Shown here: in pieces, positions 22,440-45,700 of the stretch
How positions within the stretch are numbered: position 1 is the first letter of the stretch
How the letters are laid out: the number at the start of each line of letters is the position of its first letter
Source: Scyliorhinus canicula
Lineage: Eukaryota
Length of the DNA stretch: 64,000 bases
NCBI RefSeq assembly: GCF_902713615.1
Contig: NC_052146.1
Span: 183,571,469-183,635,468, forward strand
Reading direction: 5' to 3'
Notes under the pieces: generated by a model
What the model saw: only the letters and a program-made list of their open reading frames with translations
The model's database searches: none
What the model was told of the DNA's origin: nothing
Position numbers and translations under genes: made by a program

Positions 22440-25400
22440 ACCCCACTCTTGATGATTCTCTCCATTTCTCTCTACATGCACTTTTGCAGCAGAAAAATGA
22501 TGGATTATATATTTCATTAAGAGTGGAAGGTATTGATATCGATTTTCTATTTGATACTGGAGCTGAACTTACCTGTGTTACTGAACAGAATGCTGCTTTC
22601 TTTCCCCTGACTTCAGAGAAAATTGAAGCTTTGGCTGCAGGAGGAGACTCTGTCCCTCTTCGGAAGACTATACCACTGCTCTTAGAATTTGGACCACATC
22701 AACTGATAGCGTCAATATGGGTAGGTCCGGTAACACAAGCACTTCTAGGTATGGACATCTTATCACAACTAAATTCTTCACTCAATTTCAATAATGGGAA
22801 AATTACCTGGCCCATTAGACACATAAAAAAAGATGAAATACAACATCATCCAATTTGGGCGATTGACAAAAATGATTGTGGTCTTTTGAAAATGGAACCA
22901 GTTACTTTCATGGGATCAGCTCCACCTTGTACCAAACAATACCCCATTAGCAAAACGTCAATTCAAGGTATTCTACCTATAATAAAACAACTTGAAGAAA
23001 GGGATATTTTAGTGCGTATTCACAGTTCATCAAACAGCCCTGTATGGCCTGTGAAAAAGGCTAATGGTACATGGCGCCTTACTATTGACTACAGAAAGGC
23101 AAATCAATTCATTGTCAGAAAAGCTCCTTTGGTGGCAGATCCGTCTACAATTTTTAACTCTTTAACTCCTGACCTTCAGTGGTTTTCAGTCATTGATATG
23201 GCAAATGGCTTCTGGTCAGTACCATTAGCTAAACAAGTACAACCATGGTTTGCTTTTACAGTTAATCAGCAACAGTACACATGGACTAGACTACCGCAAG
23301 GTTTTCACAATAGCCCAACTGTTTACCACATGGCTCTGCAGAATCACATCAGGGAACTGCCTGATCTGCCTTCAACCATTATTCAGTATGTAGATGATGT
23401 TCTGTTAGCCCCCATCAATAAAGATGACCATGAAAAGGACTTACGGGTGGTCTTGAACCACCTCAGTGCAAATGGTCACAAAGCTAGCTTTGCAAAAGCA
23501 CAAATTACCCAGGAAGAAGTTGTTTACTTGGGACAGAAAATTTCCAAAGGCAAAAGGGAACTTACTCAGAACAGAACAGCTGCCATCAAAGCAGCTAAAG
23601 AACCCTCAACTGTACAGGAAGTCAGATCTTTCTTGGGACTCTGTAATTTTAACAGAAATTGGATTGATTCTTATACTCAGTTATGCCATCCATTGAATGA
23701 TCTTCTAAAAGGAAACAGAAAATCAAAAGATCGAGTTAAACTCAATTCTGAACAAAAACAATCATTTCTGAATTTGAAAAGGTCCTGTGTTCAGCGCCAG
23801 CCTTAGGTATTCCAAACAACGGAAAACCTTTTACCATGTTTGTTCATGAAAGAGATGGTTACATGACTGCAGTACTAGCTCAAGAACATGGTGATCAGTT
23901 AAGACCAGTTGGGTACTATTCCCTTAAACTTGACAATGTGGCACTAGCATTTGGCAGTTGCTTACGAGCCATGGAAGCTACATGTCGAGCTATAATGATT
24001 ACATCTGGACTTGTTCTAGACCAAAAGTTAATCATTAAATGTCCACATTCAGTCCATTCTCTACTATCCATGAACAGAGTGTCACAAGTTACATCAGCTA
24101 GATGGACTAGATGGACAGCAGTTTTGGAAGCTCCCAACCTATATTTTCACAAAGCCAATCCTGTAAACCCATCGTCCTTGCTCCCGCTTCCCGAGGAACA
24201 AGGGAAGGGAGAGAGAGAAGTGCATGACTGTGTGAAAATAATAGAGGAAATGGAAGAAGTACGCTTAGTAGAAGAAGAGCCACTACAGAACCCAGATTTA
24301 ATCCTATTCACAGATGGTTCCTCTTTTATTGACAAGGGTATCAGGAAAGCTGGGTGGGCAGTCACAAGCCCATACGAAGTATTAGCTGAAGGAAGTTTGC
24401 CCCCAGCTACATCAGCTCAGCAGGCCGAATTAAAGGCACTTACAGAAGCATGTCATGTGGCAAGAGATAAAACTGCTAACATCTATACTGACTCCAGATA
24501 TGATCTTGGAGTAGCACATGATTTTGGCCAACTGTGGAGAAAAAGAGGATTTCTCACAACAGCAGGTACACCTATCCGAAATGGAAAGGAAGTATGAGAT
24601 CTTCTAGAAGCTATGACCTTGCCCAAAGAAGTATCAGTTCTAAAATGTAAAGCCCATACTCATGAGGACACTATGGAAGCAAGAGGAAATGCTCTTGCGG
24701 ACCAAGCAGCAAGGGAAGCTGCCTCCCTTTGTGCCTCTCATTGGCATCAGGAATCCAGTCACATTTACAAATTGGGAGTAACCACCTTATTACATGATTT
24801 ACGTGAAATGCAGAATGATTGTACAAAGGAAGAAAAATGGAAATGGTTAGAATCAGGTATTCAACCGTATGATGATGAAATTTGGAGAGAAGTTCAAACT
24901 TGTAAACCAGTCGCACCACAATCACTAATGCCCTTCTTAGCTCAACAAATTCATTCATGGGGACACATATCACCTCAACAAATGATGGATCGATTCCATA
25001 GAAGTTGGTGTGGTAAAGGATTCAAAAAACATGCACAATTGGTAACAAACAGATGTGTAACCTGTCAAAAGAATAACTTGGGTCCTATAACATCAATGCC
25101 TCAATTAAGAGCTCCTGCTCCTGCAGGTCCATTCCAGGACTTACAAGTAGATTACATCACTCTTCCTAAATGTCAACAGTACAATGACATCCTTGTAATA
25201 GTGGATAAATTCTCCAGATGGGTGGAAGCTGCTCCAGCTAGAAGAGGGACAGCTGCCCATACAGCCAAAGTGCTATGCAAAGACTTTATTCCCAGATGGG
25301 GAGTACCAGCTAGCATTGACTCAGACAATGGAACCCACTTTACAGGAGCTGTTTGTAGGGAAGTCTGTAAACTACTAAACATTAACTGGAATTTACACTG

Positions 25401-25907
25401 TCCTTATCATCCACAATCATCAGGACAAGTGGAACGTATGAATCGAACTTTGAAAGAAAGACTGTCTAAATACAGCCAGGAAGGCATGAATTGGGTCCAA
25501 GCTTTGCCAATAGTATTATGCAGCATTAGAGCAACACCAAATAGAACAACAGGCCTGAGCCCTTTTGAAATCATCACAGGCAGACCAATGTCTCTGCCAG
25601 GAACTATTGACTTGAGGAAAGCAGACTGTCATTTAATGAGTGATGCTTTGCTGTCTTACTGAAAAATCTAACAAATGCTGTTAGCTCTGCTTCTCAACAG
25701 GTGTTAGCTGCGTGGGGTGATCCTCCGGATGGTGGACACGACCTGGTGCCCGGTGAAGAAGTGTACGTCAAAAAGCTGCAAAAGGAACCTTTGGGATCAA
25801 AGTGGGAAGGTCCTTTCGTAATCCTTCTCACCACCCAATCCGCTGTTAAGTTAAAAGGAAAGAAAAGTTGGATTCACGCATCGCACGTGAAGCGCGCGTA
25901 CAAGTAA
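22427..25907 (+). pseudogene. pol: ERV pro-pol, copy 1 (PR, RT, RNase H, IN; disrupted)
   Basis: LFDTGA, LPQGF, YVDD, FTDGSS, SAQQAEL, HHCC and D,D(35)E integrase, GPF; frameshift near 23790, stops at 24595 and 25660. Confidence 0.92.
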
Positions 25908-25908
25908 A

Positions 25909-27268
25909 ATGTTTGCCGCAATTTTAATTTTCAGTTATTTGATTGACTTTGTGAATGTTGTATCAGAAATGAATAAGAACACATTCCTTTACACAGCTAA
26001 GATATATGCTGAAAACTTTAACATTTCTAATTGTTGGGTATGCATTGCAACCCCTACTAACTCAGGGGAGGGTATTCCCTTTCTAACTATTCCCTTTAAT
26101 GCTTCAGAAACAGCAGAATGGTACATCTATCAAAGTGTCCCTCGCTCTGTGGTGACCCGTTCTGGAGCATATACATGTGAAAATGGGAGGTACCAGGTTG
26201 ACATCCAAAAATCTATTAACTTATGGAAATCTGCAGGCTATCCACTAAACACCTTTTCAGGATGGCACCAACTTCAATTTAACCCTGACAAAAAACCTCA
26301 ACATCTTAACCTCCCAACTAATATTAAACAAAAAGGATCAATTTGCCTCATCAGTAAGGACCCTAAAGGGATACCAATGGGTAATAGTAATTGTACTAAC
26401 TATGTAGATGTTAACACAGCTTTTAAATGTACTAACGACCGCTTAGAAAGTTATGCGGTCCTCAAGGATAACAGGCATACCTAACCTCAGAAATAATAAA
26501 ACATTCGAAGACCAATGGCTCTTAGAATATATTTACTCATATTCTGCTTATAATGGAACTTATTTTATTTGTGATGATAAAGCATATCCCTGGCTCCCAA
26601 GATCCTGGTCAGGATCTTGCTATTTAGGATACATGGTACCTGCCATTCGTCATGTGACTAATCTCCTGCATATTTCAGAAATGACTGTTCAAAGAAAAAA
26701 ACGTTCTATCACCTTTAGAGATGCAATTTTTGCTAGAATCATTCCTTTCTATTGGGAAGTAAGGATGGAGAATGAGTTAAATAAAATAACAAACATCATA
26801 CAAGATGTGGCAGAATACACTGCCACGGCCCTAGACAAAATCTCTGACGAAATGCGAACAATTCGAACCGTGGTATTGCAAAATCGAATGGCACTTGACT
26901 ATGTGCTAGCCGAAAACGGTGGCACGTGCGCCCTGATTGGTGCAGAATGTTGCACTTACATTCCTGATAACTCTGAAGAAGTTAAAGATTTGGTATTACA
27001 TATCCAAAAAGAAATCAAAAAACTTGATCCATCCCAAGTTCTCTCTCTCTGGGATAGAATTTGCGGGTGGTTTGGACACACAGGAATGTCCATAATGAGA
27101 ATAATCCTATTCTCCTGTGCAGCTGGATTCATCATTTATATGACATACCAATGTGCTACGTGCATCAAAGAACTATTCGCTAAGCGCAGGGGACCAACTG
27201 TCAGAATGATTCACACTAACCCCACTGCACCCCCAATTGATGAATTTGAGGTGAAATACTTTTGTTGA
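25909..27268 (+). pseudogene. env: ERV env, copy 1 (gamma-type, one frameshift near 26470)
   Basis: Signal peptide, CWVC, furin site RKKR, ISD LQNRMALDYVL, CX6CC, TM helix. Confidence 0.92.
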
Positions 27269-27554
27269 AATGTTAACCGTAATATTATCAATCAATTATT
27301 TGTATAATCTATTAATACTGAATCTGTAGCATCAAATTTGACTAATTCATTCATTGTTATTTTGTAATAATGATTCTTTAAGAATTTTAATGATTATTGT
27401 TGAAATACTTGTTGCAATGCTAAGTTTCCATTCTATTGTTTAAATCTGCAATGACAATATGAATGAATTATTCTTTGCGCTTTTACCTATCCTATCGCTT
27501 TAATGATATCTTTTATCTTATTCTGATATATCTCACTTGATCTTTCGATTTATC

Positions 27555-27565
27555 AAAGGGGCGAC
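27555..27565 (+). other. Polypurine tract (copy 2 at 37129-37139)
   Basis: AAAGGGGCGAC directly before the TGTAG LTR start. Confidence 0.7.
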
Positions 27566-27920
27566 TGTAGAAGTCAGGTATTTTAAATACACTCTTTTTG
27601 ATGCGGCGATAAATCCGTTCCGCTGCTTTGTGCGCTGATTGGCTCGCCTGAGCTGGCTTGCCCCTTGTCCCGTCTGCTTCTGGTTCCCCCTCTCCCTCTC
27701 CCTTGGCTCCCTTCTGGTGTTTTTTTCTCCCCCTTTTCCGCACCCTATTTTTATTTTTATTGTCTCTTCCCTTTTTTCCCCCTCTCTTCCCTTCTTTCCT
27801 TCACCACAGAATTTTATTTATTTATTTATTTATTTCCCCCCCCCTTTTATGCAACCCCTCTCAAGTGGGCTTACTTTGGATGGGAGAGAGTGTAAAAAGA
27901 GAGAAAATAATATATATACC

Positions 27921-28812
27921 TGTAGAAGTCAGGTATTTTAAATACACTTAATATAGGTAAGTTAAATCCCAGTTTTAAAATGAAAGAAACATACAACTTC
28001 CAAACTCAGACATGTGTTTGGGAAAAACAGAACCACTGATAAAAACATCACATTCTTTCAAGGACAGGGGCTAAATCCCATGGGCTGTAAGGTGGAATAA
28101 TTAAAGGCTCCATTGTTCTGATTTCAGGCCACTTGTGATAACAGCCTGAACCACATTCCATAACGTATGCAAGCCGAAACATTTTAGACTGTGTCAAAAA
28201 ACAGTTTAAATTATAGTATGATGAGATGACATAACGTCTTAATTGTTGCAGATAAGCAACAATTGGAAGTGGCGTTGCATCGTGAGGATGGACGGCTTGT
28301 TATCAAATCAAATGTGTTTTGAATATAGCTTAAACCAATTAGGATTATATTGGGGTGTAATCGGATCGCTTAAGACAGATATGAAAGAGTATATCCATGG
28401 ATGATTTGGCCACCATTTTAGAAAGACAGAAAGACAGAGAGAAAGAGACAGAAAAGAGACAAAGAGAACAAGACAGAAAGCGAGAGAGAGAGAGAAAGTA
28501 AAGGAAGAGAATTAGAAAAGAGTTCTGTATTCCTATTTCATTTTCATACTTTGATTTCAGCCTTTGACTTTTAAAGTTGTGTTCAGGCTATTATCTCAGA
28601 AGATAATTCCTGTGATTCTTTGAAGAAAATCAAATTGTCTACAAACTACCTTTTAAATCATTTTCAAGTTGTAACCAATGAACTTCAAATAAAACAATTC
28701 TTATTTGCACCTGACAAGTTTTTAACTTGAATTTCTACTGAGTTTCAACAATGTCTCAACAACAACCGGCAACCGTAATGAGAATAAAACTTCAAAATCC
28801 TAAGATACAACA
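27921..28812 (+). repeat. LTR 2 (shared middle LTR)
   Basis: Matches LTR 1 at offset 9580; followed by PBS. Confidence 0.93.
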
Positions 28813-28814
28813 CT

Positions 28815-28830
28815 TGGCGTAGTCAGGCAG
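28815..28830 (+). promoter_or_regulatory. Primer-binding site, tRNA-Ser (copy 2)
   Basis: Identical to 19235-19250. Confidence 0.75.
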
Positions 28831-29130
28831 CGGGGGAGGAGTTCTGATTCGACCTTCGGAGAGGTTCGGAAAGCTTTGTGAGAAATCGGAGGAGGACCAG
28901 GCGACGACGGAAGCTTCGGGAATAATCGGAAGAGATCGGAAGACAGTCGGAATCCACGGCTAGTCTGGGGTAAGAAATATCTTTTTCACCCATTAAAAGT
29001 CTTAAAGCCGCATCAATCAGTGCTTCGACCCCTGAAAAGGACATTTTTATAGACTGTATTAAATCAATCAGCTGCTGGTTGTTGAGACTAACGTACCTAC
29101 ACACAAAAAGTTAAGTGAAAGGTTGAATTT

Positions 29131-32012
29131 ATGGCTGATCCAGATGAAAGTATAGATTCAGACCCTTTAGAAGGCAGAAATTTACTCCCTACGACGGTAA
29201 AAGGAGGAACTGGGATACCAGATGTTTCCATTGAAGATATGTTGGGGGATTTTGGGTCTTTCTTTCGTAAACAATTTGACCTATGTGAAACCTCAAGAAA
29301 AATTGAATCAAAGTATAATATCCGCAGAGGACAGTGGTCCTTTGATAATATCAAGAGAGCATGGGGAAAAAGCACACGATTGCACAGTGCAGAACGTGTT
29401 AAATGGTCCCTGGCAATTATGGGACAATTACGCAGACAGCAAGAGATAATTACTAAAAATAAAACTGATCATGAATATAGGACAACTAAAGACCAACTAA
29501 TTGCAGTTGTTGAAGAATTGCAAGATGCAAAAGCAAAACTTGAATCTGACGATGAAATTAGAACTGATTTGGAAAACAAAATCCAGCAGTTGCCTGTTCA
29601 AATAGCAGAAGTACAAAATCAAATTTTTGAAGTGGAATCACAAAACCAACAGCTGCAATCAAAAACTGAGCAAATTGAACTTGAAAAGTACAAGTTAATT
29701 GAAGAAAAATGTGTTTTAGAAAAAGAATTGCGAGATGCAGAATTCAGTTTTGAACAGGATGATGCCAAATTCCAACAGTTATCTGTTCTATTAGCAGAAT
29801 TCCAAAATCAAATTTTTGAAGTGGAATCAAAAAACCAAAAGCTGCAAGCAAAAACTGAGCAAATTGAACTTGAAAAGTACAAGTTAATTGAAGAAAACTG
29901 TTTTAGAAAGAGAATTGCGAGATGTAAAATCCAAATTTGAACAGGACGATGAACTTAGAACAGAATTGCAAAACAAAACTTCTAAACTCCAGCAGTTATC
30001 TGTTCAAATAGAGTTCCAAGATCAAATTTTTGAAGTAGAGTCAAAATACAAACAGTTGCAATCAAAAATTGATCAAACTGAACTTGAAAATTCCAAGTTA
30101 ATTGAAGAAAAATGTGTTTTAGAAAAAGAATTGCAAGATACAAAAGCAAAACTTGAACATTATGATGAAATTGGAACAGAATTGCAAAACAAAACTTCTA
30201 AACTCCAGCAGTTATCTTCTCAAATAGCAGAATTACAAAATCAAATTTTTGAAGTGGAGTCAAAATACCAAAAGTTGCAATCAAAAACTGAGAGAATTGA
30301 ACTTGAAAAGTACAAGGTAATGGAACAAAAATGTGTTTTAGAAAGAGAATTGCAAGATGCAGAATCTAAACTTGAACATTATGATGAAATTGGAACAGAA
30401 TTGCAAAACAAAACTTCTAAACTCCAGCAGTTATCTATTCAAACAGCAGAATTACAAGATCAAATTTTTGAAGTAGAGTCAAGATACCAAAGGTTGCAAT
30501 CAAAAACTGAGCGAATTGAATATGATAATTGCAAGTTAATCGAAGAAAGATATGTTTTTAAAAAAAGATTTAAACACTGCGACTGAAAGGGGCAAGGTCC
30601 TAAAAGACTGGATTCAAACAGCAGCTGAAGTAACACAAACTCAACAAGCAGCCCACCTAGTGGCACAATTGGCAAATGCACAGCCGAGATCAATTGTCAA
30701 GAATAAATTAATTCCTCTGCCAAATGAATCAGACGAAGATAGTGTTCCTACAAAGCGTAATACTAAATTAATTCAACTAGCCCCTTTAAAACGCAAACGG
30801 GTTAGAGTTGGAAGCAAAAAAATAGAGGAAGAAGGTGAAACTATCTCTAGAAACATATTTGATCATCAATGGACTCAGGAACCAGCAGAGCCTGCACAAA
30901 TTGACGAATGGTCCAAAAATCTCCCACATCCTAAAAAGGGTGGTATGTCCACATGGAATGGAATTAACAGATTAAAATCCATTTACAGTCTCCACCCATT
31001 TGATGGAGTACAAGTTCTGACTATCATGCTCGGTACTCGCGTAATTTCAACCCTTAGAACTGAGGTGGAATTTGCCCTTGGAGACGATTTGCAAAATTTA
31101 GACGCTGGTTGGCTAGCAATCAGGGATTGGCTATTAACATATCGCCCCCCGAGGACCGATTGGTCTAAGATCACATCTTGCATTCAAAAAAGTAATGAAG
31201 ATATTCAGGATTTTGAGGACAGATTTTTACAGACTTGGATGGAATATTCGGGAATGACACTTACAGACGAAACTGACGCATGGGATGCAAGCAATTTAAA
31301 TCCATTAAAAACGGCTTTTGTAGCCGGTGTTAAACCTGAGGTTTCTGATGCCTTGAATTTGGTTTTACCATCTTGGGCCAAAACTGGCACATACCGAGAC
31401 ATAGTTGACCGGTGCATTCAGATAGATCGCGGTTTACGCAATCGGACAAGCTCATCAGCAGTGACTAAAGCACCACCACAAAATTCAGGGCAAACATGTA
31501 CCCTGGCTCCATTAAAATCACGTAAGGAAAATATACCACAATGTCTTTACTGCGGTAAAGTAGGACACTGGATGGCAAAATGCTATCTTAAACCACGGAT
31601 GGATTCGAGAGATGATAATGAGGTAGACAATTTTCACTACAATACATTTCCACCTCGTGGTCAACCACGTAATGCGCACAAACAAGATGCACCTAGGGTA
31701 ACGTTCCAACAAGACAGACCCAGACTTACGTACAGGGATTCTAAAACCTCCCAACCTTATCCATGTGGGGAGGAACCTTATCCACGTAGGGAGGAACCTT
31801 ACCCACGTAGGGAGGAACCTTACCCACGTAGGGAGGAACCTTACCCACGTAGGGAGGAACCTTACCCATGTAGGGAGAAATCTTACCCACATGGGGACGA
31901 ACCGTACCCACGTAGGATTCTACACGATGATAACAATGCTATGAATGAAATGTTAAACAGCTGTCCTCCAGCTCAAAGACGTTCTCTGTGTGATAATTCA
32001 AAAAACTACTAG
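29131..32012 (+). pseudogene. gag: ERV gag, copy 2
   Basis: Near-identical to copy 1 but lacks its 7-bp insertion. Confidence 0.88.
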
Positions 32013-35000
32013 ACCCCACTCTTGATGATTCTCTCCATTTCTCTCTACATGCACTTTTGCAGCAGAAAAATGATGGATTATATATTTCATTAAGAGTGGA
32101 AGGTATTGATATCGATTTTCTATTTGATACTGGAGCTGAACTTACCTGTGTTACTGAACAGAATGCTGCTTTCTTTCCCCTGACTTCAGAGAAAATTGAA
32201 GCTTTGGCTGCAGGAGGAGACTCTGTCCCTCTTCGGAAGACTATACCACTGCTCTTAGAATTTGGACCACATCAACTGATAGCGTCAATATGGGTAGGTC
32301 CGGTAACACAAGCACTTCTAGGTATGGACATCTTATCACAACTAAATTCTTCACTCAATTTCAATAATGGGAAAATTACCTGGCCCATTAGACACATAAA
32401 AAAAGATGAAATACAACATCATCCAATTTGGGCGATTGACAAAAATGATTGTGGTCTTTTGAAAATGGAACCAGTTACTTTCATGGGATCAGCTCCACCT
32501 TGTACCAAACAATACCCCATTAGCAAAACGTCAATTCAAGGTATTCTACCTATAATAAAACAACTTGAAGAAAGGGATATTTTAGTGCGTATTCACAGTT
32601 CATCAAACAGCCCTGTATGGCCTGTGAAAAAGGCTAATGGTACATGGCGCCTTACTATTGACTACAGAAAGGCAAATCAATTCATTGTCAGAAAAGCTCC
32701 TTTGGTGGCAGATCCGTCTACAATTTTTAACTCTTTAACTCCTGACCTTCAGTGGTTTTCAGTCATTGATATGGCAAATGGCTTCTGGTCAGTACCATTA
32801 GCTAAACAAGTACAACCATGGTTTGCTTTTACAGTTAATCAGCAACAGTACACATGGACTAGACTACCGCAAGGTTTTCACAATAGCCCAACTGTTTACC
32901 ACATGGCTCTGCAGAATCACATCAGGGAACTGCCTGATCTGCCTTCAACCATTATTCAGTATGTAGATGATGTTCTGTTAGCCCCCATCAATAAAGATGA
33001 CCATGAAAAGGACTTACGGGTGGTCTTGAACCACCTCAGTGCAAATGGTCACAAAGCTAGCTTTGCAAAAGCACAAATTACCCAGGAAGAAGTTGTTTAC
33101 TTGGGACAGAAAATTTCCAAAGGCAAAAGGGAACTTACTCAGAACAGAACAGCTGCCATCAAAGCAGCTAAAGAACCCTCAACTGTACAGGAAGTCAGAT
33201 CTTTCTTGGGACTCTGTAATTTTAACAGAAATTGGATTGATTCTTATACTCAGTTATGCCATCCATTGAATGATCTTCTAAAAGGAAACAGAAAATCAAA
33301 AGATCGAGTTAAACTCAATTCTGAACAAAAACAATCATTTCTGAATTTGAAAAGGTCCTGTGTTCAGCGCCAGCCTTAGGTATTCCAAACAACGGAAAAC
33401 CTTTTACCATGTTTGTTCATGAAAGAGATGGTTACATGACTGCAGTACTAGCTCAAGAACATGGTGATCAGTTAAGACCAGTTGGGTACTATTCCCTTAA
33501 ACTTGACAATGTGGCACTAGCATTTGGCAGTTGCTTACGAGCCATGGAAGCTACATGTCGAGCTATAATGATTACATCTGGACTTGTTCTAGACCAAAAG
33601 TTAATCATTAAATGTCCACATTCAGTCCATTCTCTACTATCCATGAACAGAGTGTCACAAGTTACATCAGCTAGATGGACTAGATGGACAGCAGTTTTGG
33701 AAGCTCCCAACCTATATTTTCACAAAGCCAATCCTGTAAACCCATCGTCCTTGCTCCCGCTTCCCGAGGAACAAGGGAAGGGAGAGAGAGAAGTGCATGA
33801 CTGTGTGAAAATAATAGAGGAAATGGAAGAAGTACGCTTAGTAGAAGAAGAGCCACTACAGAACCCAGATTTAATCCTATTCACAGATGGTTCCTCTTTT
33901 ATTGACAAGGGTATCAGGAAAGCTGGGTGGGCAGTCACAAGCCCATACGAAGTATTAGCTGAAGGAAGTTTGCCCCCAGCTACATCAGCTCAGCAGGCCG
34001 AATTAAAGGCACTTACAGAAGCATGTCATGTGGCAAGAGATAAAACTGCTAACATCTATACTGACTCCAGATATGATCTTGGAGTAGCACATGATTTTGG
34101 CCAACTGTGGAGAAAAAGAGGATTTCTCACAACAGCAGGTACACCTATCCGAAATGGAAAGGAAGTATGAGATCTTCTAGAAGCTATGACCTTGCCCAAA
34201 GAAGTATCAGTTCTAAAATGTAAAGCCCATACTCATGAGGACACTATGGAAGCAAGAGGAAATGCTCTTGCGGACCAAGCAGCAAGGGAAGCTGCCTCCC
34301 TTTGTGCCTCTCATTGGCATCAGGAATCCAGTCACATTTACAAATTGGGAGTAACCACCTTATTACATGATTTACGTGAAATGCAGAATGATTGTACAAA
34401 GGAAGAAAAATGGAAATGGTTAGAATCAGGTATTCAACCGTATGATGATGAAATTTGGAGAGAAGTTCAAACTTGTAAACCAGTCGCACCACAATCACTA
34501 ATGCCCTTCTTAGCTCAACAAATTCATTCATGGGGACACATATCACCTCAACAAATGATGGATCGATTCCATAGAAGTTGGTGTGGTAAAGGATTCAAAA
34601 AACATGCACAATTGGTAACAAACAGATGTGTAACCTGTCAAAAGAATAACTTGGGTCCTATAACATCAATGCCTCAATTAAGAGCTCCTGCTCCTGCAGG
34701 TCCATTCCAGGACTTACAAGTAGATTACATCACTCTTCCTAAATGTCAACAGTACAATGACATCCTTGTAATAGTGGATAAATTCTCCAGATGGGTGGAA
34801 GCTGCTCCAGCTAGAAGAGGGACAGCTGCCCATACAGCCAAAGTGCTATGCAAAGACTTTATTCCCAGATGGGGAGTACCAGCTAGCATTGACTCAGACA
34901 ATGGAACCCACTTTACAGGAGCTGTTTGTAGGGAAGTCTGTAAACTACTAAACATTAACTGGAATTTACACTGTCCTTATCATCCACAATCATCAGGACA

Positions 35001-35480
35001 AGTGGAACGTATGAATCGAACTTTGAAAGAAAGACTGTCTAAATACAGCCAGGAAGGCATGAATTGGGTCCAAGCTTTGCCAATAGTATTATGCAGCATT
35101 AGAGCAACACCAAATAGAACAACAGGCCTGAGCCCTTTTGAAATCATCACAGGCAGACCAATGTCTCTGCCAGGAACTATTGACTTGAGGAAAGCAGACT
35201 GTCATTTAATGAGTGATGCTTTGCTGTCTTACTGAAAAATCTAACAAATGCTGTTAGCTCTGCTTCTCAACAGGTGTTAGCTGCGTGGGGTGATCCTCCG
35301 GATGGTGGACACGACCTGGTGCCCGGTGAAGAAGTGTACGTCAAAAAGCTGCAAAAGGAACCTTTGGGATCAAAGTGGGAAGGTCCTTTCGTAATCCTTC
35401 TCACCACCCAATCCGCTGTTAAGTTAAAAGGAAAGAAAAGTTGGATTCACGCATCGCACGTGAAGCGCGCGTACAAGTAA
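32000..35480 (+). pseudogene. pol: ERV pro-pol, copy 2
   Basis: Same translated ORFs and lesions as copy 1 at offset 9573. Confidence 0.92.
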
Positions 35481-35481
35481 A

Positions 35482-36841
35482 ATGTTTGCCGCAATTTTAA
35501 TTTTCAGTTATTTGATTGACTTTGTGAATGTTGTATCAGAAATGAATAAGAACACATTCCTTTACACAGCTAAGATATATGCTGAAAACTTTAACATTTC
35601 TAATTGTTGGGTATGCATTGCAACCCCTACTAACTCAGGGGAGGGTATTCCCTTTCTAACTATTCCCTTTAATGCTTCAGAAACAGCAGAATGGTACATC
35701 TATCAAAGTGTCCCTCGCTCTGTGGTGACCCGTTCTGGAGCATATACATGTGAAAATGGGAGGTACCAGGTTGACATCCAAAAATCTATTAACTTATGGA
35801 AATCTGCAGGCTATCCACTAAACACCTTTTCAGGATGGCACCAACTTCAATTTAACCCTGACAAAAAACCTCAACATCTTAACCTCCCAACTAATATTAA
35901 ACAAAAAGGATCAATTTGCCTCATCAGTAAGGACCCTAAAGGGATACCAATGGGTAATAGTAATTGTACTAACTATGTAGATGTTAACACAGCTTTTAAA
36001 TGTACTAACGACCGCTTAGAAAGTTATGCGGTCCTCAAGGATAACAGGCATACCTAACCTCAGAAATAATAAAACATTCGAAGACCAATGGCTCTTAGAA
36101 TATATTTACTCATATTCTGCTTATAATGGAACTTATTTTATTTGTGATGATAAAGCATATCCCTGGCTCCCAAGATCCTGGTCAGGATCTTGCTATTTAG
36201 GATACATGGTACCTGCCATTCGTCATGTGACTAATCTCCTGCATATTTCAGAAATGACTGTTCAAAGAAAAAAACGTTCTATCACCTTTAGAGATGCAAT
36301 TTTTGCTAGAATCATTCCTTTCTATTGGGAAGTAAGGATGGAGAATGAGTTAAATAAAATAACAAACATCATACAAGATGTGGCAGAATACACTGCCACG
36401 GCCCTAGACAAAATCTCTGACGAAATGCGAACAATTCGAACCGTGGTATTGCAAAATCGAATGGCACTTGACTATGTGCTAGCCGAAAACGGTGGCACGT
36501 GCGCCCTGATTGGTGCAGAATGTTGCACTTACATTCCTGATAACTCTGAAGAAGTTAAAGATTTGGTATTACATATCCAAAAAGAAATCAAAAAACTTGA
36601 TCCATCCCAAGTTCTCTCTCTCTGGGATAGAATTTGCGGGTGGTTTGGACACACAGGAATGTCCATAATGAGAATAATCCTATTCTCCTGTGCAGCTGGA
36701 TTCATCATTTATATGACATACCAATGTGCTACGTGCATCAAAGAACTATTCGCTAAGCGCAGGGGACCAACTGTCAGAATGATTCACACTAACCCCACTG
36801 CACCCCCAATTGATGAATTTGAGGTGAAATACTTTTGTTGA
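35482..36841 (+). pseudogene. env: ERV env, copy 2
   Basis: Same translation and frameshift as copy 1. Confidence 0.92.
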
Positions 36842-37530
36842 AATGTTAACCGTAATATTATCAATCAATTATTTGTATAATCTATTAATACTGAATCTGT
36901 AGCATCAAATTTGACTAATTCATTCATTGTTATTTTGTAATAATGATTCTTTAAGAATTTTAATGATTATTGTTGAAATACTTGTTGCAATGGTAAGTTT
37001 CCATTCTATTGTTTAAATCTGCAATGACAATATGAATGAATTATTCTTTGCGCTTTTTACCTATCCTATCGCTTTAATGATATCTTTTATCTTATTCTGA
37101 TATATCTCACTTGATCTTTCGATTTATCAAAGGGGCGACTGTAGAAGTCAGATATTTTAAATACACTCTTTTTGATGCGGCGATAAATCCGTTCCGCTGC
37201 TTTGTGCGCTGATTGGCTCGCCTGAGCTGGCTTGCCCCTTGTCCCGTCTGCTTCTGGTTCCCCCTCTCCCTCTCCCTTGGCTCCCTTCTGGTGTTTTTTT
37301 CTCCCCCTTCCCTTTCATCTTTTCTTCTCCCCTTGTTTTTCTTTTCCCCCCTTTTCCGCACCCTATTTTTATTTTTATTGTCTCTTCCCTTTTTTCCCCC
37401 TCTCTTCCCTTCTTTCCTTCACCACAGAATTTTATTTATTTATTTCCCCCCCCCTTTTATGCAACCCCTCTCAGGTGGGATTACTTTGGATGGGAGAGAG
37501 TGTAAAAAGAGAGAAAATAATATATATACC

Positions 37531-38438
37531 TGTAGAAGTCAGGTATTTTAAATACACTTAATATAGGTAAGTTAAATCCCAGTTTTAAAATGAAAGAAAC
37601 ATACAACTTCCAAACTCAGACATGTGTTTGGGAAAAACAGAACCACTGATAAAAACATCACATTCTTTCAAGGACAGGGGCTAAATCCCATGGGCTGTAA
37701 GGTGGAATAATTAAAGGCTCCATTGTTCTGATTTCAGGCCACTTGTGATAACAGCCTGAACCACATTCCATAACGTATGCAAGCCGAAACATTTTAGACT
37801 GTGTCAAAAAACAGTTTAAATTATAGTATGATGAGATGACATAACGTCTTAATTGTTGCAGATAAGCAACAATTGGAAGTGGCGTTGCATCGTGAGGATG
37901 GACGGCTTGTTATCAAATCAAATGTGTTTTGAATATAGTTTAAACCAATTAGGATTATATTGGGGTGTGATCGGATCGCTTAAGACAGATATGAAAGAGT
38001 ATATCCATGGATGATTTGGCCACCATTTTAGAAAGAAAGAAAGACAGACAGAAAGACAGAGAGAAAGAGACAGGAAAGAGACAAAGAGAACAAGACAGAA
38101 AGAGAGAGAGAGAGAGAGAGAAAGTAAAGGAAGAGAATTAGAAAAGAGTTCTGTATTCCTATTTCATTTTCATACTTTGATTTCAGCCTTTGACTTTTAA
38201 AGTTGTGTTCAGGCTATTATCTCAGAAGATAATTCCTGTGATTCTTTGAAGAAAATCAAATTGTCTACAAACTACATTTTAAATCATTTTCAAGTTGTAA
38301 CCAATGAACTTCAAATAAAACAATTCTTATTTGCACCTGACAAGTTTTTAACTTGAATTTCTACTGAGTTTCAACAATGTCTCAACAACAACCGGCAACC
38401 GTAATGAGAATAAAACTTCAAAATCCTAAGATACAACA
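37531..38438 (+). repeat. LTR 3 (908 bp)
   Basis: About 4 substitutions and longer GA repeats relative to LTR 1; followed by TSD ATACC. Confidence 0.93.
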
Positions 38439-41400
38439 ATACCCCTCCCCCCTCTCTCTTTAACAGTTTTCTTTTGGGTTTTGTTTTTATAAAAGTCCTT
38501 TTTTTCTCCTTCCTTTCCCCTCACTCACCCAGGATAGAGAGAGAGAGAGGCTTTTGTCCAGCCTCTTTGTCCTTGCCTCGTGGTTGTTGCTGCAGGTTTT
38601 GGGGGGGGGTTTGGGTCGGTCCCCACTGCTCGGTCCGTTCGGGCTGCCGCACTTCGCACCCCGTGCCCTCCCGGTGGGGGTGGTTAGGTCGCTGGTCGCT
38701 GCCGCCGGCTGTGCTCCGCTTCAGTCCTGGCCGCTGCCGCACCGCTCCTGGCCTGCGTTTGGGGGGGGGTGGACCTGCCGCCGCCGCTGCTGCCGAACCG
38801 CTCATGCTGCCGCCGCCGAGGATCCTCCGCCGACAGGCTTGTTGGGGGGGGGGGGGGGGGTCCCTTCCCTGCTCTTTGCCGCTGCAGAGAGAAAGGCCCC
38901 GACTTCGTTACCCTGCGGGAGCCCCTCTCCGTGCGACCGCTGCGCTCGCCGACCGGAAGTCGTATCCAAGTGTGCTTTTAAATTGGAGGGCTGTGACTAG
39001 TGGTGTTCCGCAGGGATCAGTGCTGGGACCTTTGCTGTTCGTAGTATATATAAATGATTTGGAGGGAAATGTAACTGGTCTGATGAGTAAGTTGCAGACG
39101 GCACAAAGGTTGGTGGAACTGCGGATAGCGATGAGGACTGTCAGAGGATACAGCAGGATTTGGAGACTTGGGCGGAGAGATGGCAGATGGAGTTTAATCC
39201 GGACAAACATGAGGTAATGCATTTTGGAAGGTATAATGCAGGTAGGCAATATACAGTGAATGTTAGAACCCTCACGAGTGTTGAAAGTCAGAGAGATCTA
39301 GGTGTACAGGTCCACAGGTCACTGAAAGGGGCAACACAGGTGGAGAAGGTAGTCAAGAATGCATACGGCATGCTTGCCTTCATTGGCCGAGGCATTGAGT
39401 ATAAAAATTGGCAAGTCATGTTGCAGCTGTATAGAACCTTAGTTAGGCCACACTTGGAGTATCGTGTTCAATTCTGGTTGCACACTACCAGAAGGATGTG
39501 GAGGCTTTAGAGAGGGTGCAGAAGAGATTCACCAGGATGTTGCCTGGTATGGAGGGCATTAGCTATGAGGAGCGGTTGAATGAACTCGGTTTGTTCTCAC
39601 TAGAACAACGGAGGTTGAGGGGCGACCTGATAGAGGTCTACAAAATTTTGAGGGGCATAGACAAGAGTGGATAGTCAGAGGCTTTTCCCCAGGGTAGAGG
39701 GGTCAATTACTAGGGGGCATACGTTTAAGGTGCGAGTGGCAAGGTTTAGAGATGTACGAGGCAAGTTTTTTTACACGGAGAGTAGTGGATGCCTAGGACT
39801 CGCTGCCGGAGGTGGTGGAAGCAGGGACGATAATGACATTTAAGGGGCATCTTGACAAATACATGAATAGGATGGGAAGAGGGATACGCACCCAGGAAGT
39901 GTAGAAAATTTTAGTTTAGACAGGCAGCATGGTTGGCACGGGCTTGGAGGGCCGAAGGACCTGTTCCTGTGTTGTACTTTTCTTTGTTCTTAGTTCTTTT
40001 CTTATCTACACCCCCAAGGCCTTTTTCAACTCACTGGACAAACTGATTATGGCATTTGTGTGGGGAGGGAAGAATGTAAGTATCCCAAAGACAGTACTGC
40101 ACAGAACGAGATCCATGGGGAGCCTAGCCATCCCAAACCTGTAATATTACCACTGGGCAGCAACCGCGGAGAGGGTAAAAGGATGGATAAAGAGCCAGAA
40201 GCTGAGTGGGTGTTTATGGAGAAGGGCTCCTGCAGAGGAACCTCCCTCCGGGCCCTAGCCATGACGGCACTCACATCCCCACCTAATGAATATTCAACAA
40301 GCCCAGTGGTGGTTGCAACACTCTGGTCGCCGAACCAACTGCGACAGCTTTTTGGGCTAACCAAAATGTCCGACACGGCCCCCATCGGCAACAACCACAG
40401 GTTCACGCCTGCGACTATGGACACATCCTTCAAAAGTGGAGACAGGACGGGGGGGGGGGGGGGGGGGACACTGACAGTTACAAACCTTTATAATGCTCGA
40501 GGGACTGACAGAAAGATTCCAGCTGACGGGTGGGAAGAAACTAAGGTACCTACAGATCAAAAACTTCCCACAAAGGGAATCGAGGACGTATCCACGACTC
40601 CCACGACAATCACTGCTGCAGGATCTGCTGGACGTGGACATCCTTGGCAAAGGGAACTGTGGTGACATGTATGGGCGACTGCTAAGGGGGGCCAATACCC
40701 AACTGAATGAGACGAGGGGGAAGTAGGAGGAGAACTTGGGGTTTGAAATAGGGTGGGGACTCTGGAGCGAAGCATTGCATGTGGTCAACCCCACCTCCAC
40801 ATGCAGAAGGCTAAGCCTAATGCAGCTAAAAGTGGTACACAGAGTCCACTTAACCAGAACTCGAATGAGCAGGTCCTTCCCGAAGGTGGAGGAAAGATGT
40901 GAACGGTGCCCGAACCACGGCCACCTGTTCTGGTCTTGACCCAGACTTATTGGGCTTGGGACAGCCTTCTTTGAAGCGATGTTCAAGGTTTTGGGATGAG
41001 GGTGGAGCCGTGCTCGAGAGTGACGGTCTTTGGGGTATCAAAACAGCCTCTTCATGGGGAGGAGGGCCGACACCCTTGCCTTTGCATCCCTAATCGTCTG
41101 CCGAAGAATCCGGCCGGTCATCAGCAGTGCCACCCAGAGCTGCAGACTGGCTGGCAAACCTATCAGAATTTCTCCAAATGGACAAAATTAAATTTGCCAT
41201 TCGAGGGTCAGAGGAGGGCTTCCACAAAACATGGGAGCCATTCACTTGGTTGTTCCAAGACCTGTTTGTAGCCATTGACTAATCAGTCAAAAAAACAGGA
41301 GAGGGTATCCACGACACAGCGAGGGGGGGGGGGGCGCGGGGGAGTGAGAGAGGGGAACAAAAGCAGCATGAGAAGCAGCATGACACCAACACAATAGGAG

Positions 41401-42059: not shown

Positions 42060-42660
42060 ATCACTGTCTTGGACACGATTCACCCAAACATGACGAAGTG
42101 TCATTTTCGGCGAGATTCGCTGGGTGTAAGGAGCCAGCTACAATGGTGAGATCGAGACCGCTTATTCACCCACACTTAGTGCACAAAGCGAGCCCTCACG
42201 TGAAACCCACTATGCATATCCCACCTCTTGAAGTCCCCCTTCATCTGCTCCACCAGCCGAGTTAAATTCAACTTGTGTAGCTGTGCCCAACCCTGCATTA
42301 CCTGAATGCCCCAGCTCTCTGATTCGCCCGACTTGTGCCTCAGCTGTTCACAGCTAACAAGGGGGCATCATTGAAACAGTCCGTCAGCACTCCATTCCAG
42401 TCAAACTAGGAGAATGACATTACGGAGATCTGCTCCTCGCGTTGGGAATGCCAACCTGGCCAGGCATTTGGACACTGTGGATGAGAAGCAGGGCATCCTG
42501 TATCTCGAGGGGGTAGGAGAACCAGCAGCACGGTGACCGCTGCCGCCTTGCAGCTGTGGTAAGTGCAGGAAGCACAATCAGGAGGACCACCGTCCAATGT
42601 AGGAAGAAGATTAATGACCATGCAACCTGTACAGGTAAGTTGCCATCTCTCACCTCCTGG
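42060..42660 (+). mobile_element. Harbinger remnant with a Myb/SANT-like exon
   Basis: Degenerate APR..NANLA..LD.V...RRTTVQCRKKIND followed by a GTAAG donor. Confidence 0.55.
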
Positions 42661-42789: not shown

Positions 42790-45700
42790 ACAAACAGCCA
42801 AACTCAAATACCCCGTTTTAACCCCCTTACCCTTCCCCCTTCTGCTGACTTCTCAATCCTCCTTAAATGAACGGCTTCCATCTCTGAATGAACTCATCAA
42901 CTGACCCCCTAAGGATGAACTTGACCTTCTCCAGCCTCAGAAATTCTGCCAGGTCGCTCACCAACACCCCCGCAAACCCCTGCCAGAACCCCTTTAGCTT
43001 CGGACATGCCCAGAACATGTGGATGTGATTCACGGGCCTCCCCGCGCACCACCCACACTTTTCCTCTACTCGCTAAAAAAACCTACTCACGCACGCTACC
43101 GTCATACGTGCCCTGTGAATTGCTTTAAACTGAATGAGGCTTAGCCTCAAACACGACGAGGATGCGTTTACCCTCCGCAGGGCCTCAGCCCACATCCCAG
43201 CCTCCATCTCCCCTTCCAGCCCCTCTTCCTACTTACGCTTTACATCCCCCACTGTGGCTCCCTCCCACTCCATCAGCTCCTTGTAGACGTCAGACACCTT
43301 CCCCTCCCCTATCCCCCCCTTCGACAGCACCTTGTCTTGCAACCCCAAGGGTGGCAACCTGGAAAAGGACGTCACCTCTCTCTTCACAAAATCCCGAACC
43401 TGCAGGTACCTGAAACTGTTCCTCCTGGGCAACTCATACTCTTCCTTCAGATCCTCCAATTTCACAAAACTGCCCCCGACAAACAGATCGCTGAATCGCT
43501 CAATCCCTGCCTGCAGCCACACCCAAAATCTCGAATTCAGGCCCACGGTGCAAATCTATGATTGTCACAGATCGGTGCCCACCCCGAGGCACCCCCCAGT
43601 CCCAAATGCTGTCTCCAATTCCCCCACACCCACAAGGTCAACACTACCACTGGGTTCACGGAGTGCCTAGCCAGCGGGAATGGCAGTAGTGCTGTTAACA
43701 ATGCCCTTAAGCTCTTTCCCCTACAAGAAACCACCTTCATCTGCCCCATGCCGACCCCTCCCCCACTACCCACTTCCTAACCATAGCAATGTTGCCCCCC
43801 CCAGCCAGTCCCACTTCCTTGCCCCGCTCCAAAAATGCCTTCTTGACCCACGGGGCATTCCCTGCATACACAAACCCAGAGATCAGCACATTAACCTTTT
43901 TAAAGAACAATTTCCAGACAAAGATCGGAAGGTTCTGAAATAAGAACAGGAACCTCTACAGCACCGTCATTTTTACTGTCTGCACCCGTCCCACCGACAA
44001 TGGCAGCATATCCCACCTCTTGAAGTCCCCCTTCATCTGCTCCACCAGCCGAGTTAAATTCAACTTGTGTAGCTGTGCCCAACCCTGCATTACCTGAATG
44101 CCCAGGTACTAAAACATGGCCCCACTACCTTAAACGGCAGCTCTCCCAACCTCCTCGCCTGCCCTGTGGTCTCAATCGTGAACACCTCGCTCTTTCCCAT
44201 GTTCAACTTGTACCCAGAGAACAGGCCAAAGTCCTCAAAAATCCCCATAATGCCAGCAATGCCAGCCATAGGTCCGAAATATATAACAGGTCGTCCGCAT
44301 ACAGTGAAACCCTGTGCTCGATGTCACCCTGTACAATCCCTCCCCAATCCCTCGACGCGCCATTGCCAATGGCTCTATTTCCAAGGCAAGGAGGAGACCC
44401 GCGATAAAGCCCAAAATATCCCAAACTAACCTGGTTTATCTGGTGCCTTGTACAGCAACCGGATCCTGTGCACAAACCCCTGCCCGGACCACCCCAGCAC
44501 CTCCCACAGATATTCCAACTCCACCCGGTCGAACGCCTTCTCCGTATCCATCGCCACTACCACCTCCACCTCCTGCCCCTCTGGAGGCATCATAATTACA
44601 TTGAGCAGCCTCCTCACATTCGCCGACAGCTGTCTCACTTTCACAAACCCCGTTTGGTCCTTGCCGATCACCCCCAGGACGCGAAGCCAACACCTTCACC
44701 AGCAACTTGGCATCTACATTCAAAAGCGATATCGGGCGGTATGACCCACAATGCTCCGGACCCTAGACCTTTTCCAATATCAAAAAGATGGATGCCTGCG
44801 ATAGCGTAGGAGGGAGTTCCCCCCTCTCCCTAGCCTCATTGTATGCCCTCACCAACAGTGGTCCCAGGTTGCCCCCATATTCTTCATCACCTCCCTCAAA
44901 CCAGTAGGGGCCCCATTTCCTGCACCAACTCCTGGGAAACTCCAGCCCATCCAGGAATCACCGCATTCCCCCCCCCCCCCCCCCCCGGTCCGGGGGCTAC
45001 AACTCATAATCTCCTGATAGAAATCTTCAAACACTCCATTCATCCCCTCCAGATCCAACACCACCCTTCCCATTTTGTCCTTTACTCTGCCAGTCTCCCT
45101 CACCACCTCTTGCTTCCTCAGCTGGTGGGCCCGCTTCCTGCTCGTCTTCTCACCATATTCATATACTGTACCTCTGGAGCTGCCTCACCGGCTTCCTTAT
45201 GGACACTAATCCGAACTCCAACTGGAATCTCTGCCTCTCTTTCAACAACCCTGCCTCCAGGCCTCTGAATACCTCCTGTCCATTCTCAAGATCTCCTCTA
45301 CCAGCCTTGCCATCTCTGCCCACTCCGCCTTCTCCTCAAGCGCCTGAATTAAAATAAACTCCCCCGAACCACCAGTTTGAGTGCCTCCCACAATTTGGTA
45401 GCCATGGCCTTCCTGTGCCACGAGCTTCACATACCCCCGAATGGCAGCCCTCACCCGCTCACACACCCCATCTGCCAATAGCCCCACATCCAGCCTCCAC
45501 TGCAGCTGCTGTCTTCCCCCCCATCCTGTCCACTCGCAAACCCACCCAGTGCAGCATGAGGTCGGAGATCACGATCACCGGAGTCAACTGCCCCCGCCAA
45601 CAAAGCCCTGTCCACCACAAGGAAGTCAATCCAGGTAGATACCAGGTGCACATGGGAGAAATATGAAAAATTCTTTTGCTCTAGGTCTCCCAAGCCTCCA

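Follow-up and report, generated by a model that had tools for sequence, protein, structure and literature searches.

A tandem endogenous retrovirus carries captured copies of its own integration-site flank at its internal junctions

The window analyzed here, a 64-kb stretch of DNA with no N bases, holds a retroviral array set within a LINE-1, in the order flank, LTR, internal region, stub, flank, LTR, internal region, stub, flank, LTR and TSD (Table 1). Two internal regions and three LTRs are enclosed by a single TSD pair, as in a tandem provirus. Ordinary tandems have a plain LTR directly after the PPT; here a stub and a piece of host flank intervene. A preliminary description of this DNA had reported that the LTR following the first PPT starts normally and then switches into host flank before a full LTR follows, and our analysis confirmed this. 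The stub is LTR bases 1–28, and the 329 bp joined to it through a 2-nt CT overlap (27592-27593) correspond to 18012-18340, including ATACC. Identity between 18012-19300 and 27592-28880 was 100% across 1,289 bp. The extended 3′ end (stub, flank and LTR) measures 1,247 bp and keeps the normal LTR start directly after the PPT. The same structure had been said to recur at 37140-37530; the junction does recur there but the sequence is not the same, as the flank copy is 365 bp long with an extra 44 bp and the stub has a private substitution.

Table 1. Features of the array and its host element, in window positions.
Feature	Position	Strand	Remarks
Host LINE-1, left part	15141-18340	-	ORF2 endonuclease pieces, ORF1, 5′UTR as far as the provirus
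F1, native upstream flank, source of the captured DNA	18012-18340	+	With derived 44-bp deletion
Left TSD ATACC	18336-18340		Right end of F1
LTR1, 892 bp, TG...CA	18341-19232	+	
Internal region 1	19233-27565	+	PBS, gag-like, pol (RT, RNase H, integrase), env, PPT; frames split
Stub 1, first 28 bp of 3′ LTR	27566-27593	+	Adjoins PPT
F2, captured flank copy	27592-27920	+	Identical to F1; 2-nt overlap with stub 1
LTR2	27921-28812	+	Identical to LTR1
Internal region 2	28813-37139	+	Differs from region 1 in two ~160-bp clusters only
Stub 2	37140-37167	+	One private substitution at 37152
F3, older captured flank copy, 365 bp	37166-37530	+	Retains 44-bp segment and ORF1 start codon
LTR3, 908 bp	37531-38438	+	3 substitutions vs LTR1 outside the microsatellite
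Right TSD ATACC	38439-38443	+	
Remaining host L1 5′UTR	38444-38961	-	Directly continues the F sequence in paralogous L1 copies

The host element matched LINE-1 ORF1p (E=2e-5) and LINE-1 ORF2p (E=3e-20) and carries the Pfam domain Exo_endo_phos, and a Pfam search of its ORF1 assigned no family. This L1 has many copies in the genome. In paralogous copies the two sides of the insertion adjoin without a break, showing that a single integration, with a 5-bp TSD, gave rise to the array. The 44-bp deletion in F1 and F2 (window position 18156, vs 37310-37353) lies between short direct repeats. The missing segment contains the L1 ORF1 start codon (minus strand, 37318 in F3), where four of the six paralogs checked open ORF1. 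The captured DNA had originally been labeled L1 5′UTR, which was about half right: 153 of the 365 bp of F3 are coding sequence from the start of ORF1, on the minus strand. The antisense 5′UTR predicted for U3 would accordingly include ORF1 sequence. Elsewhere in the window, outside the provirus, a perfect 98-bp direct repeat (42214-42311 and 44006-44103, 1.8 kb apart) was observed, which could be another short local duplication.

The inserted element has TG...CA LTRs, a PBS, a PPT, a pol with RT, RNase H and integrase, an env and a TSD. Pfam searches found RT, RNase H, integrase and a TLV_coat env, with pol in RT-RNase H-integrase order, and a gammaretroviral RT was the closest to its RT among solved structures. 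On these sequence features it was shown to be a class I-like endogenous retrovirus. The likeness to class I (gamma/epsilon-like) ERVs lies in the RT, the pol order, the TLV_coat env and the 5-bp TSD, whereas the tRNA-Ser(AGA) primer differs, and the class placement applies above genus level only. The primer was assigned from the PBS, which resembles the 3′ end of tRNA-Ser(AGA). Reading frames are broken in both units, each with 8 stop-free stretches of at least 150 aa. The gag-like region (19933-20998, 29513-30571) consists of degenerate ~200-bp tandem repeats encoding coiled-coil-like sequence, to which a Pfam search of the gag-like ORF assigned no family.

The LTR family is numerous, with at least 42 LTR matches (the best 40 of 1,024 candidates were scored), and LTRs at 29 loci diverge by 1.5–3.6% from LTR1. 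Several relatives were unusual in themselves. The provirus at L012:2342-2380 (G000:C1 near 60.60 Mb, minus strand) is missing nearly all internal sequence: after the 5′ LTR its primer site extends ~34 nt into tRNA-Ser, beyond which a short overlap leads into the end of env, and the provirus is evidently the product of a reverse transcriptase that ran on and jumped. Its run-on copy of the primer matches 23 genomic places, and five of the six scanned were tRNA-Ser genes, the sixth being the L012 locus itself. Fifteen matches to the tRNA-Ser 3′ half were clustered within ~110 kb (G000:C6:207.68-207.79 Mb); both of the two scanned there were tRNA-Ser genes. The provirus formed by L018 and L024 (G000:C13:2.366-2.376 Mb) has LTRs differing at 36 sites and mismatched flanking 5-mers, and is possibly a recombinant of two insertions. 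At L034:2019-2913 (G000:C13 near 2.13 Mb) an LTR-only insert runs through LTR 1-774 forward and then from LTR 82 to 1 inverted, with the U3 start at both ends and the same 5-bp TSD on each side. Its form suggests a fold-back DNA whose two U3-type ends were both joined by integrase.

We then asked where the captured flank came from and how old it is. F1 and F3 have nine states in common that few of the 24 closest L1 paralogs show (the copies fetched, of 40 scored), indicating that the donor was this very L1 copy, so the proposal that the array had captured its own flank stands. These shared states ruled out an L1 copy elsewhere as the donor, and a second independent virus at the same base was ruled out because LTR1 and LTR3 also have rare states in common. 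The 44-bp segment of F3 is present in 23 of the 24 paralogs and absent from F1 and F2. Two substitutions separate the flanks, one private to F1/F2 and one private to F3; outside the microsatellite three separate the LTRs, one private to LTR1/2 and two to LTR3. As F3 keeps the 44 bp lost from F1 and F2 and both branches carry private changes, it is an old, independently evolving copy that was not made from the present F1, and the capture cannot be put down to simple copying in the assembly. Flank and LTR divergence were alike (2/321 vs 3/801, p=0.63), as were those of flank and distal LTR (2/321 vs 1/307, p=1.0). This similarity, a dating based on five substitutions, suggests that capture took place at or soon after integration and has roughly the age of the LTR pair. 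The order proposed earlier, an old capture and a recent re-expansion, fits these divergences.

A genome-wide search for the junction had been proposed as a check, and it placed the chimeric U3 at no other locus. The 22-mer junction had two exact matches in the 4.22-Gb genome, both in the window (reversed control, 0), and a 24-mer allowing up to two mismatches still gave two. Exact PPT-LTR junctions numbered 69 (the pattern was exact, and proviruses with a changed PPT fall outside this number); a stub followed by an LTR restart within 1.5–2.5 kb was seen at two of the 69, both in the window, and family-wide recurrence was rejected on this count. None of 29 other LTR loci had an upstream stub. 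Had the virus transduced the host sequence, both LTRs should carry it and so should new integration sites, and this was found nowhere in the genome. The captured flank is thus, as far as this assembly reads, a one-off event in this genome, without progeny. Family LTRs interrupted by other repeats were also seen (L033, L088, L089, L090, L095, L117), several of them in the first 160 bp of U3; by appearance the interrupters were SINE-like, an inverted-repeat element and an L1-like piece. Six interrupted LTRs were inspected, of which four resume at the break, as ordinary insertions do, and two have no further LTR within ~10 kb.

The reading we favor, which we hold to be about evenly balanced between right and wrong, is a one-step, homology-anchored capture followed by a later tandem doubling. 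The class I-like ERV integrated into the 5′UTR of the LINE-1. At or soon after integration, a single template switch in DNA repair or replication would have used the homology between the LTRs: the 3′ LTR strand would have paired with the 5′ LTR, overrun its outer edge by 329 bp into the host flank and rejoined the 3′ LTR at base 28. It would have left flank-LTR-internal-stub-flank-LTR, a product that the sequence shows. The switch would probably have been of the one-sided invasion/SDSA or FoSTeS kind; in one-sided invasion one end is homologous and the other is joined with little or no homology. The native flank later lost 44 bp and both copies gained a few mutations. The unit would have doubled only long afterwards, when the 1.2-kb flank-plus-LTR repeats exchanged unequally.

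The geometry of the unit is what makes us prefer a single step. The unit is 9,580 bp long and the LTR-LTR spacing 9,225, so that both breakpoints lie within 357 bp of the LTR register, a closeness expected at ~1% under a log-uniform size prior (a rough and post hoc figure). A single homology-anchored repair would explain breakpoints so close to this register. Plain LTR-LTR recombination had been judged unable to make the stub-flank junction, and we agree. On the role given to microhomology the sequence says little: an overlap of at least 2 nt is expected at ~13% of random joins, so the CT overlap is weak evidence, and no wider imperfect homology was found around it.

Comparison of the two units bears on the later doubling. 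Between units 1 and 2 we counted 9 substitutions and 2 indels over 9,580 bp. All of these fall in two ~160-bp windows, and none of 200,000 random placements was as clustered (taking 9 or 10 events); identical runs of 1,883 and 7,365 bp remain. The two units are far closer to each other than copies 1 and 3 are (p=2e-4 without the first cluster, p=0.015 with all events). Because the differences cluster, their use as a clock was rejected. Two different private indels, one per unit and each unique in the genome, sit at one spot, which together with the clustering suggests consensus error. No source for the differences was found in the neighboring gag-region repeats or in other assembled proviruses. 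F2 and LTR2 are without any copy-3 marker, so a crossover must lie in the first 144 of the 1,221 homologous bp (12%). The middle unit would be either very recent, through unequal crossover, or a false duplication. Re-expansion by unequal crossover, as the preliminary description proposed, remains plausible in that it fits the flank-plus-LTR repeat, but it is held to that small part of the homology and has false duplication as its competitor.

That the middle unit (~9.6 kb) is a false assembly duplication is unlikely, though likely enough to be taken seriously. The capture would be real, the animal would have one internal region, and only copy number would change; the flank-plus-LTR repeat would have served to join two haplotypes or reads left under-collapsed. 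The long identical runs, the restriction of differences to two read-sized clusters and the different private indels at the same place all speak for it. However, there is no gap between the units, and in the available text of PMC9516828 such duplications are mostly gap-separated. The junction was also seen with two different flank alleles, and a genuine-looking tandem of the family exists in the same assembly. This control, an ordinary three-LTR provirus of a sister subfamily (L130/L131/L136, G000:C1:101.909-101.927 Mb), has an internally deleted unit of 7,957 bp that is 99.6% identical, with 32 differences spread evenly over 7.5 kb and matching target sequence at both ends.

The route of the preliminary description was that a microhomology switch duplicated flank and whole provirus, the last copy was then reduced to a solo LTR, and the array grew again by unequal crossover. 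It yields exactly the observed sequence, letter for letter the same as a one-step capture. Its parts are familiar, as solo-LTR collapse and tandem formation are described as common at ERV loci in the available portions of PMC3228705 (on HERV-K108) and PMC11899658, and many LTRs of this family stand without adjoining internal sequence. Nevertheless, duplication and collapse are not needed when one repair event gives the same product: the route requires one extra event, leaves the closeness of the breakpoints to the LTR register unexplained and starts from an overlap that chance supplies often enough. We regard it as decidedly unlikely.

It appears quite improbable that capture occurred while the integration intermediate itself was being repaired. 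Here a plus strand left incomplete 28 nt beyond the PPT would have provided a free 3′ end, and this end would have primed on the adjacent host flank while the viral ends and target were still held together. Copying would have run through the TSD into the 5′ LTR, with return by LTR homology. Such a course would explain why the stub lies beside the PPT, why the element's own flank was chosen and why the capture is as old as the LTR pair. If it were true, there could be a recurrent, overlooked class of proviruses with their own left flank in the 3′ LTR and stubs ending near LTR base 1, each of which could in principle pass host DNA into U3.

A reverse-transcription route is very unlikely. In this case minus-strand synthesis on a flank-started RNA would have gone through the 5′ LTR into the flank and jumped to U3 base 28, and the cDNA would have recombined into the parent locus. 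It would likewise place the junction beside the PPT, and the family's RT made a jump product at L012, where the tRNA-Ser run-on preceded a short-homology jump into env. It predicts new insertions with stub and flank in both LTRs, however, and none was found in the genome; it would also need a start site at 18012, packaging, and germ-line recombination instead of integration.

Public sequencing runs were searched for the locus. Fourteen of the 15 listed runs contain part of the stretch, and none holds half of its words. When 37000-37640 was compared with X1, X4, X7 and X11 (three samples), no contig crossed the stub-flank junction; contigs were short, locus-specific bins were nearly uncovered, and depth was 0 at 37396-37439 in X1 and X4. 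These contigs were among the pieces listed, 32 of 551, and their depth does not represent copy number. One X11 contig (depth 3) carries the 44-bp-deleted allele and 71 matching bases, which none of the 24 paralogs matches within 6 edits. This lends weak support to the F1-type flank being real in a second sample, and concerns the flank and not the junction. It is hardly credible that the junction is an artefact, from a chimeric read or a mis-join of full-provirus and solo-LTR alleles: although no independent read spans it in the short contigs of these four runs, its two instances break at an identical base yet differ in stub and flank alleles, F3 carries older sequence absent from F1, and a 2-nt overlap would not drive an assembly join.

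If one-step capture is right, the array would be a clean fossil of host DNA entering an LTR by a path other than reverse transcription. In principle a longer U3 could be copied from the extended 3′ end, and no such progeny is present in this genome; no AATAAA or ATTAAA was gained in the captured insert. A repeat unit that includes host DNA and an internal TSD can mislead both the dating of LTRs and annotation that relies on TSDs. The event was single and inert, in a broken provirus, and leaves the general view unchanged unless a wider survey shows recurrence. The array would seem to be an uncommon arrangement built from known processes, without known function.

Our literature search, with thin coverage of older virology, returned no description of the exact stub-flank-LTR arrangement, and three known systems resemble parts of it. 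HERV-K108 at 7p22.1 and plant tandem LTR-retrotransposons, as far as the available text of PMC3228705 and PMC11899658 describes them, likewise have two internal regions, three LTRs and one TSD pair from a single insertion, and copy number is expected to be polymorphic in such tandem proviruses. In contrast to these, an LTR stub and host flank here precede the shared LTR, so that each repeat takes in host DNA together with a TSD copy inside the array. Repair anchored by homology on one side, like template switching, is an established process in the accessible parts of PMC9299229 and PMC4888836. One-sided invasion and FoSTeS-MMBIR have one homologous end, the other joined at little or no homology, and copying past the homology boundary, as proposed for the array. 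Here, however, the process is read from one genomic fossil with an overlap at chance level.

Repair-mediated duplications within TEs, a well-recognized class, offer the third likeness, a short (<620 bp) nearby copy inside a TE. The portion of PMC2671141 available lists 824 human cases within 5 kb, of up to 619 bp, and 80 in zebrafish, thus in fish as well as mammals, with 2–9 nt of junction microhomology and an SDSA-like course. As expected of SDSA capture, the array has a 329-bp insert in a TE, a donor linked to it by rare states, and neither a polyA tail nor a new TSD. It differs in that one end is long LTR homology and not a short junction, and in that the copied DNA is the flank at which the element itself had integrated, TSD included. 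The donor also lies 9,580 bp away, beyond the usual <5 kb given in that text, which counts against the one-step reading, although a minority of distant donors is recorded there as well. By analogy, the array would work like a repair-mediated duplication inside the 3′ LTR, with later tandem growth of the sort usual for proviruses.
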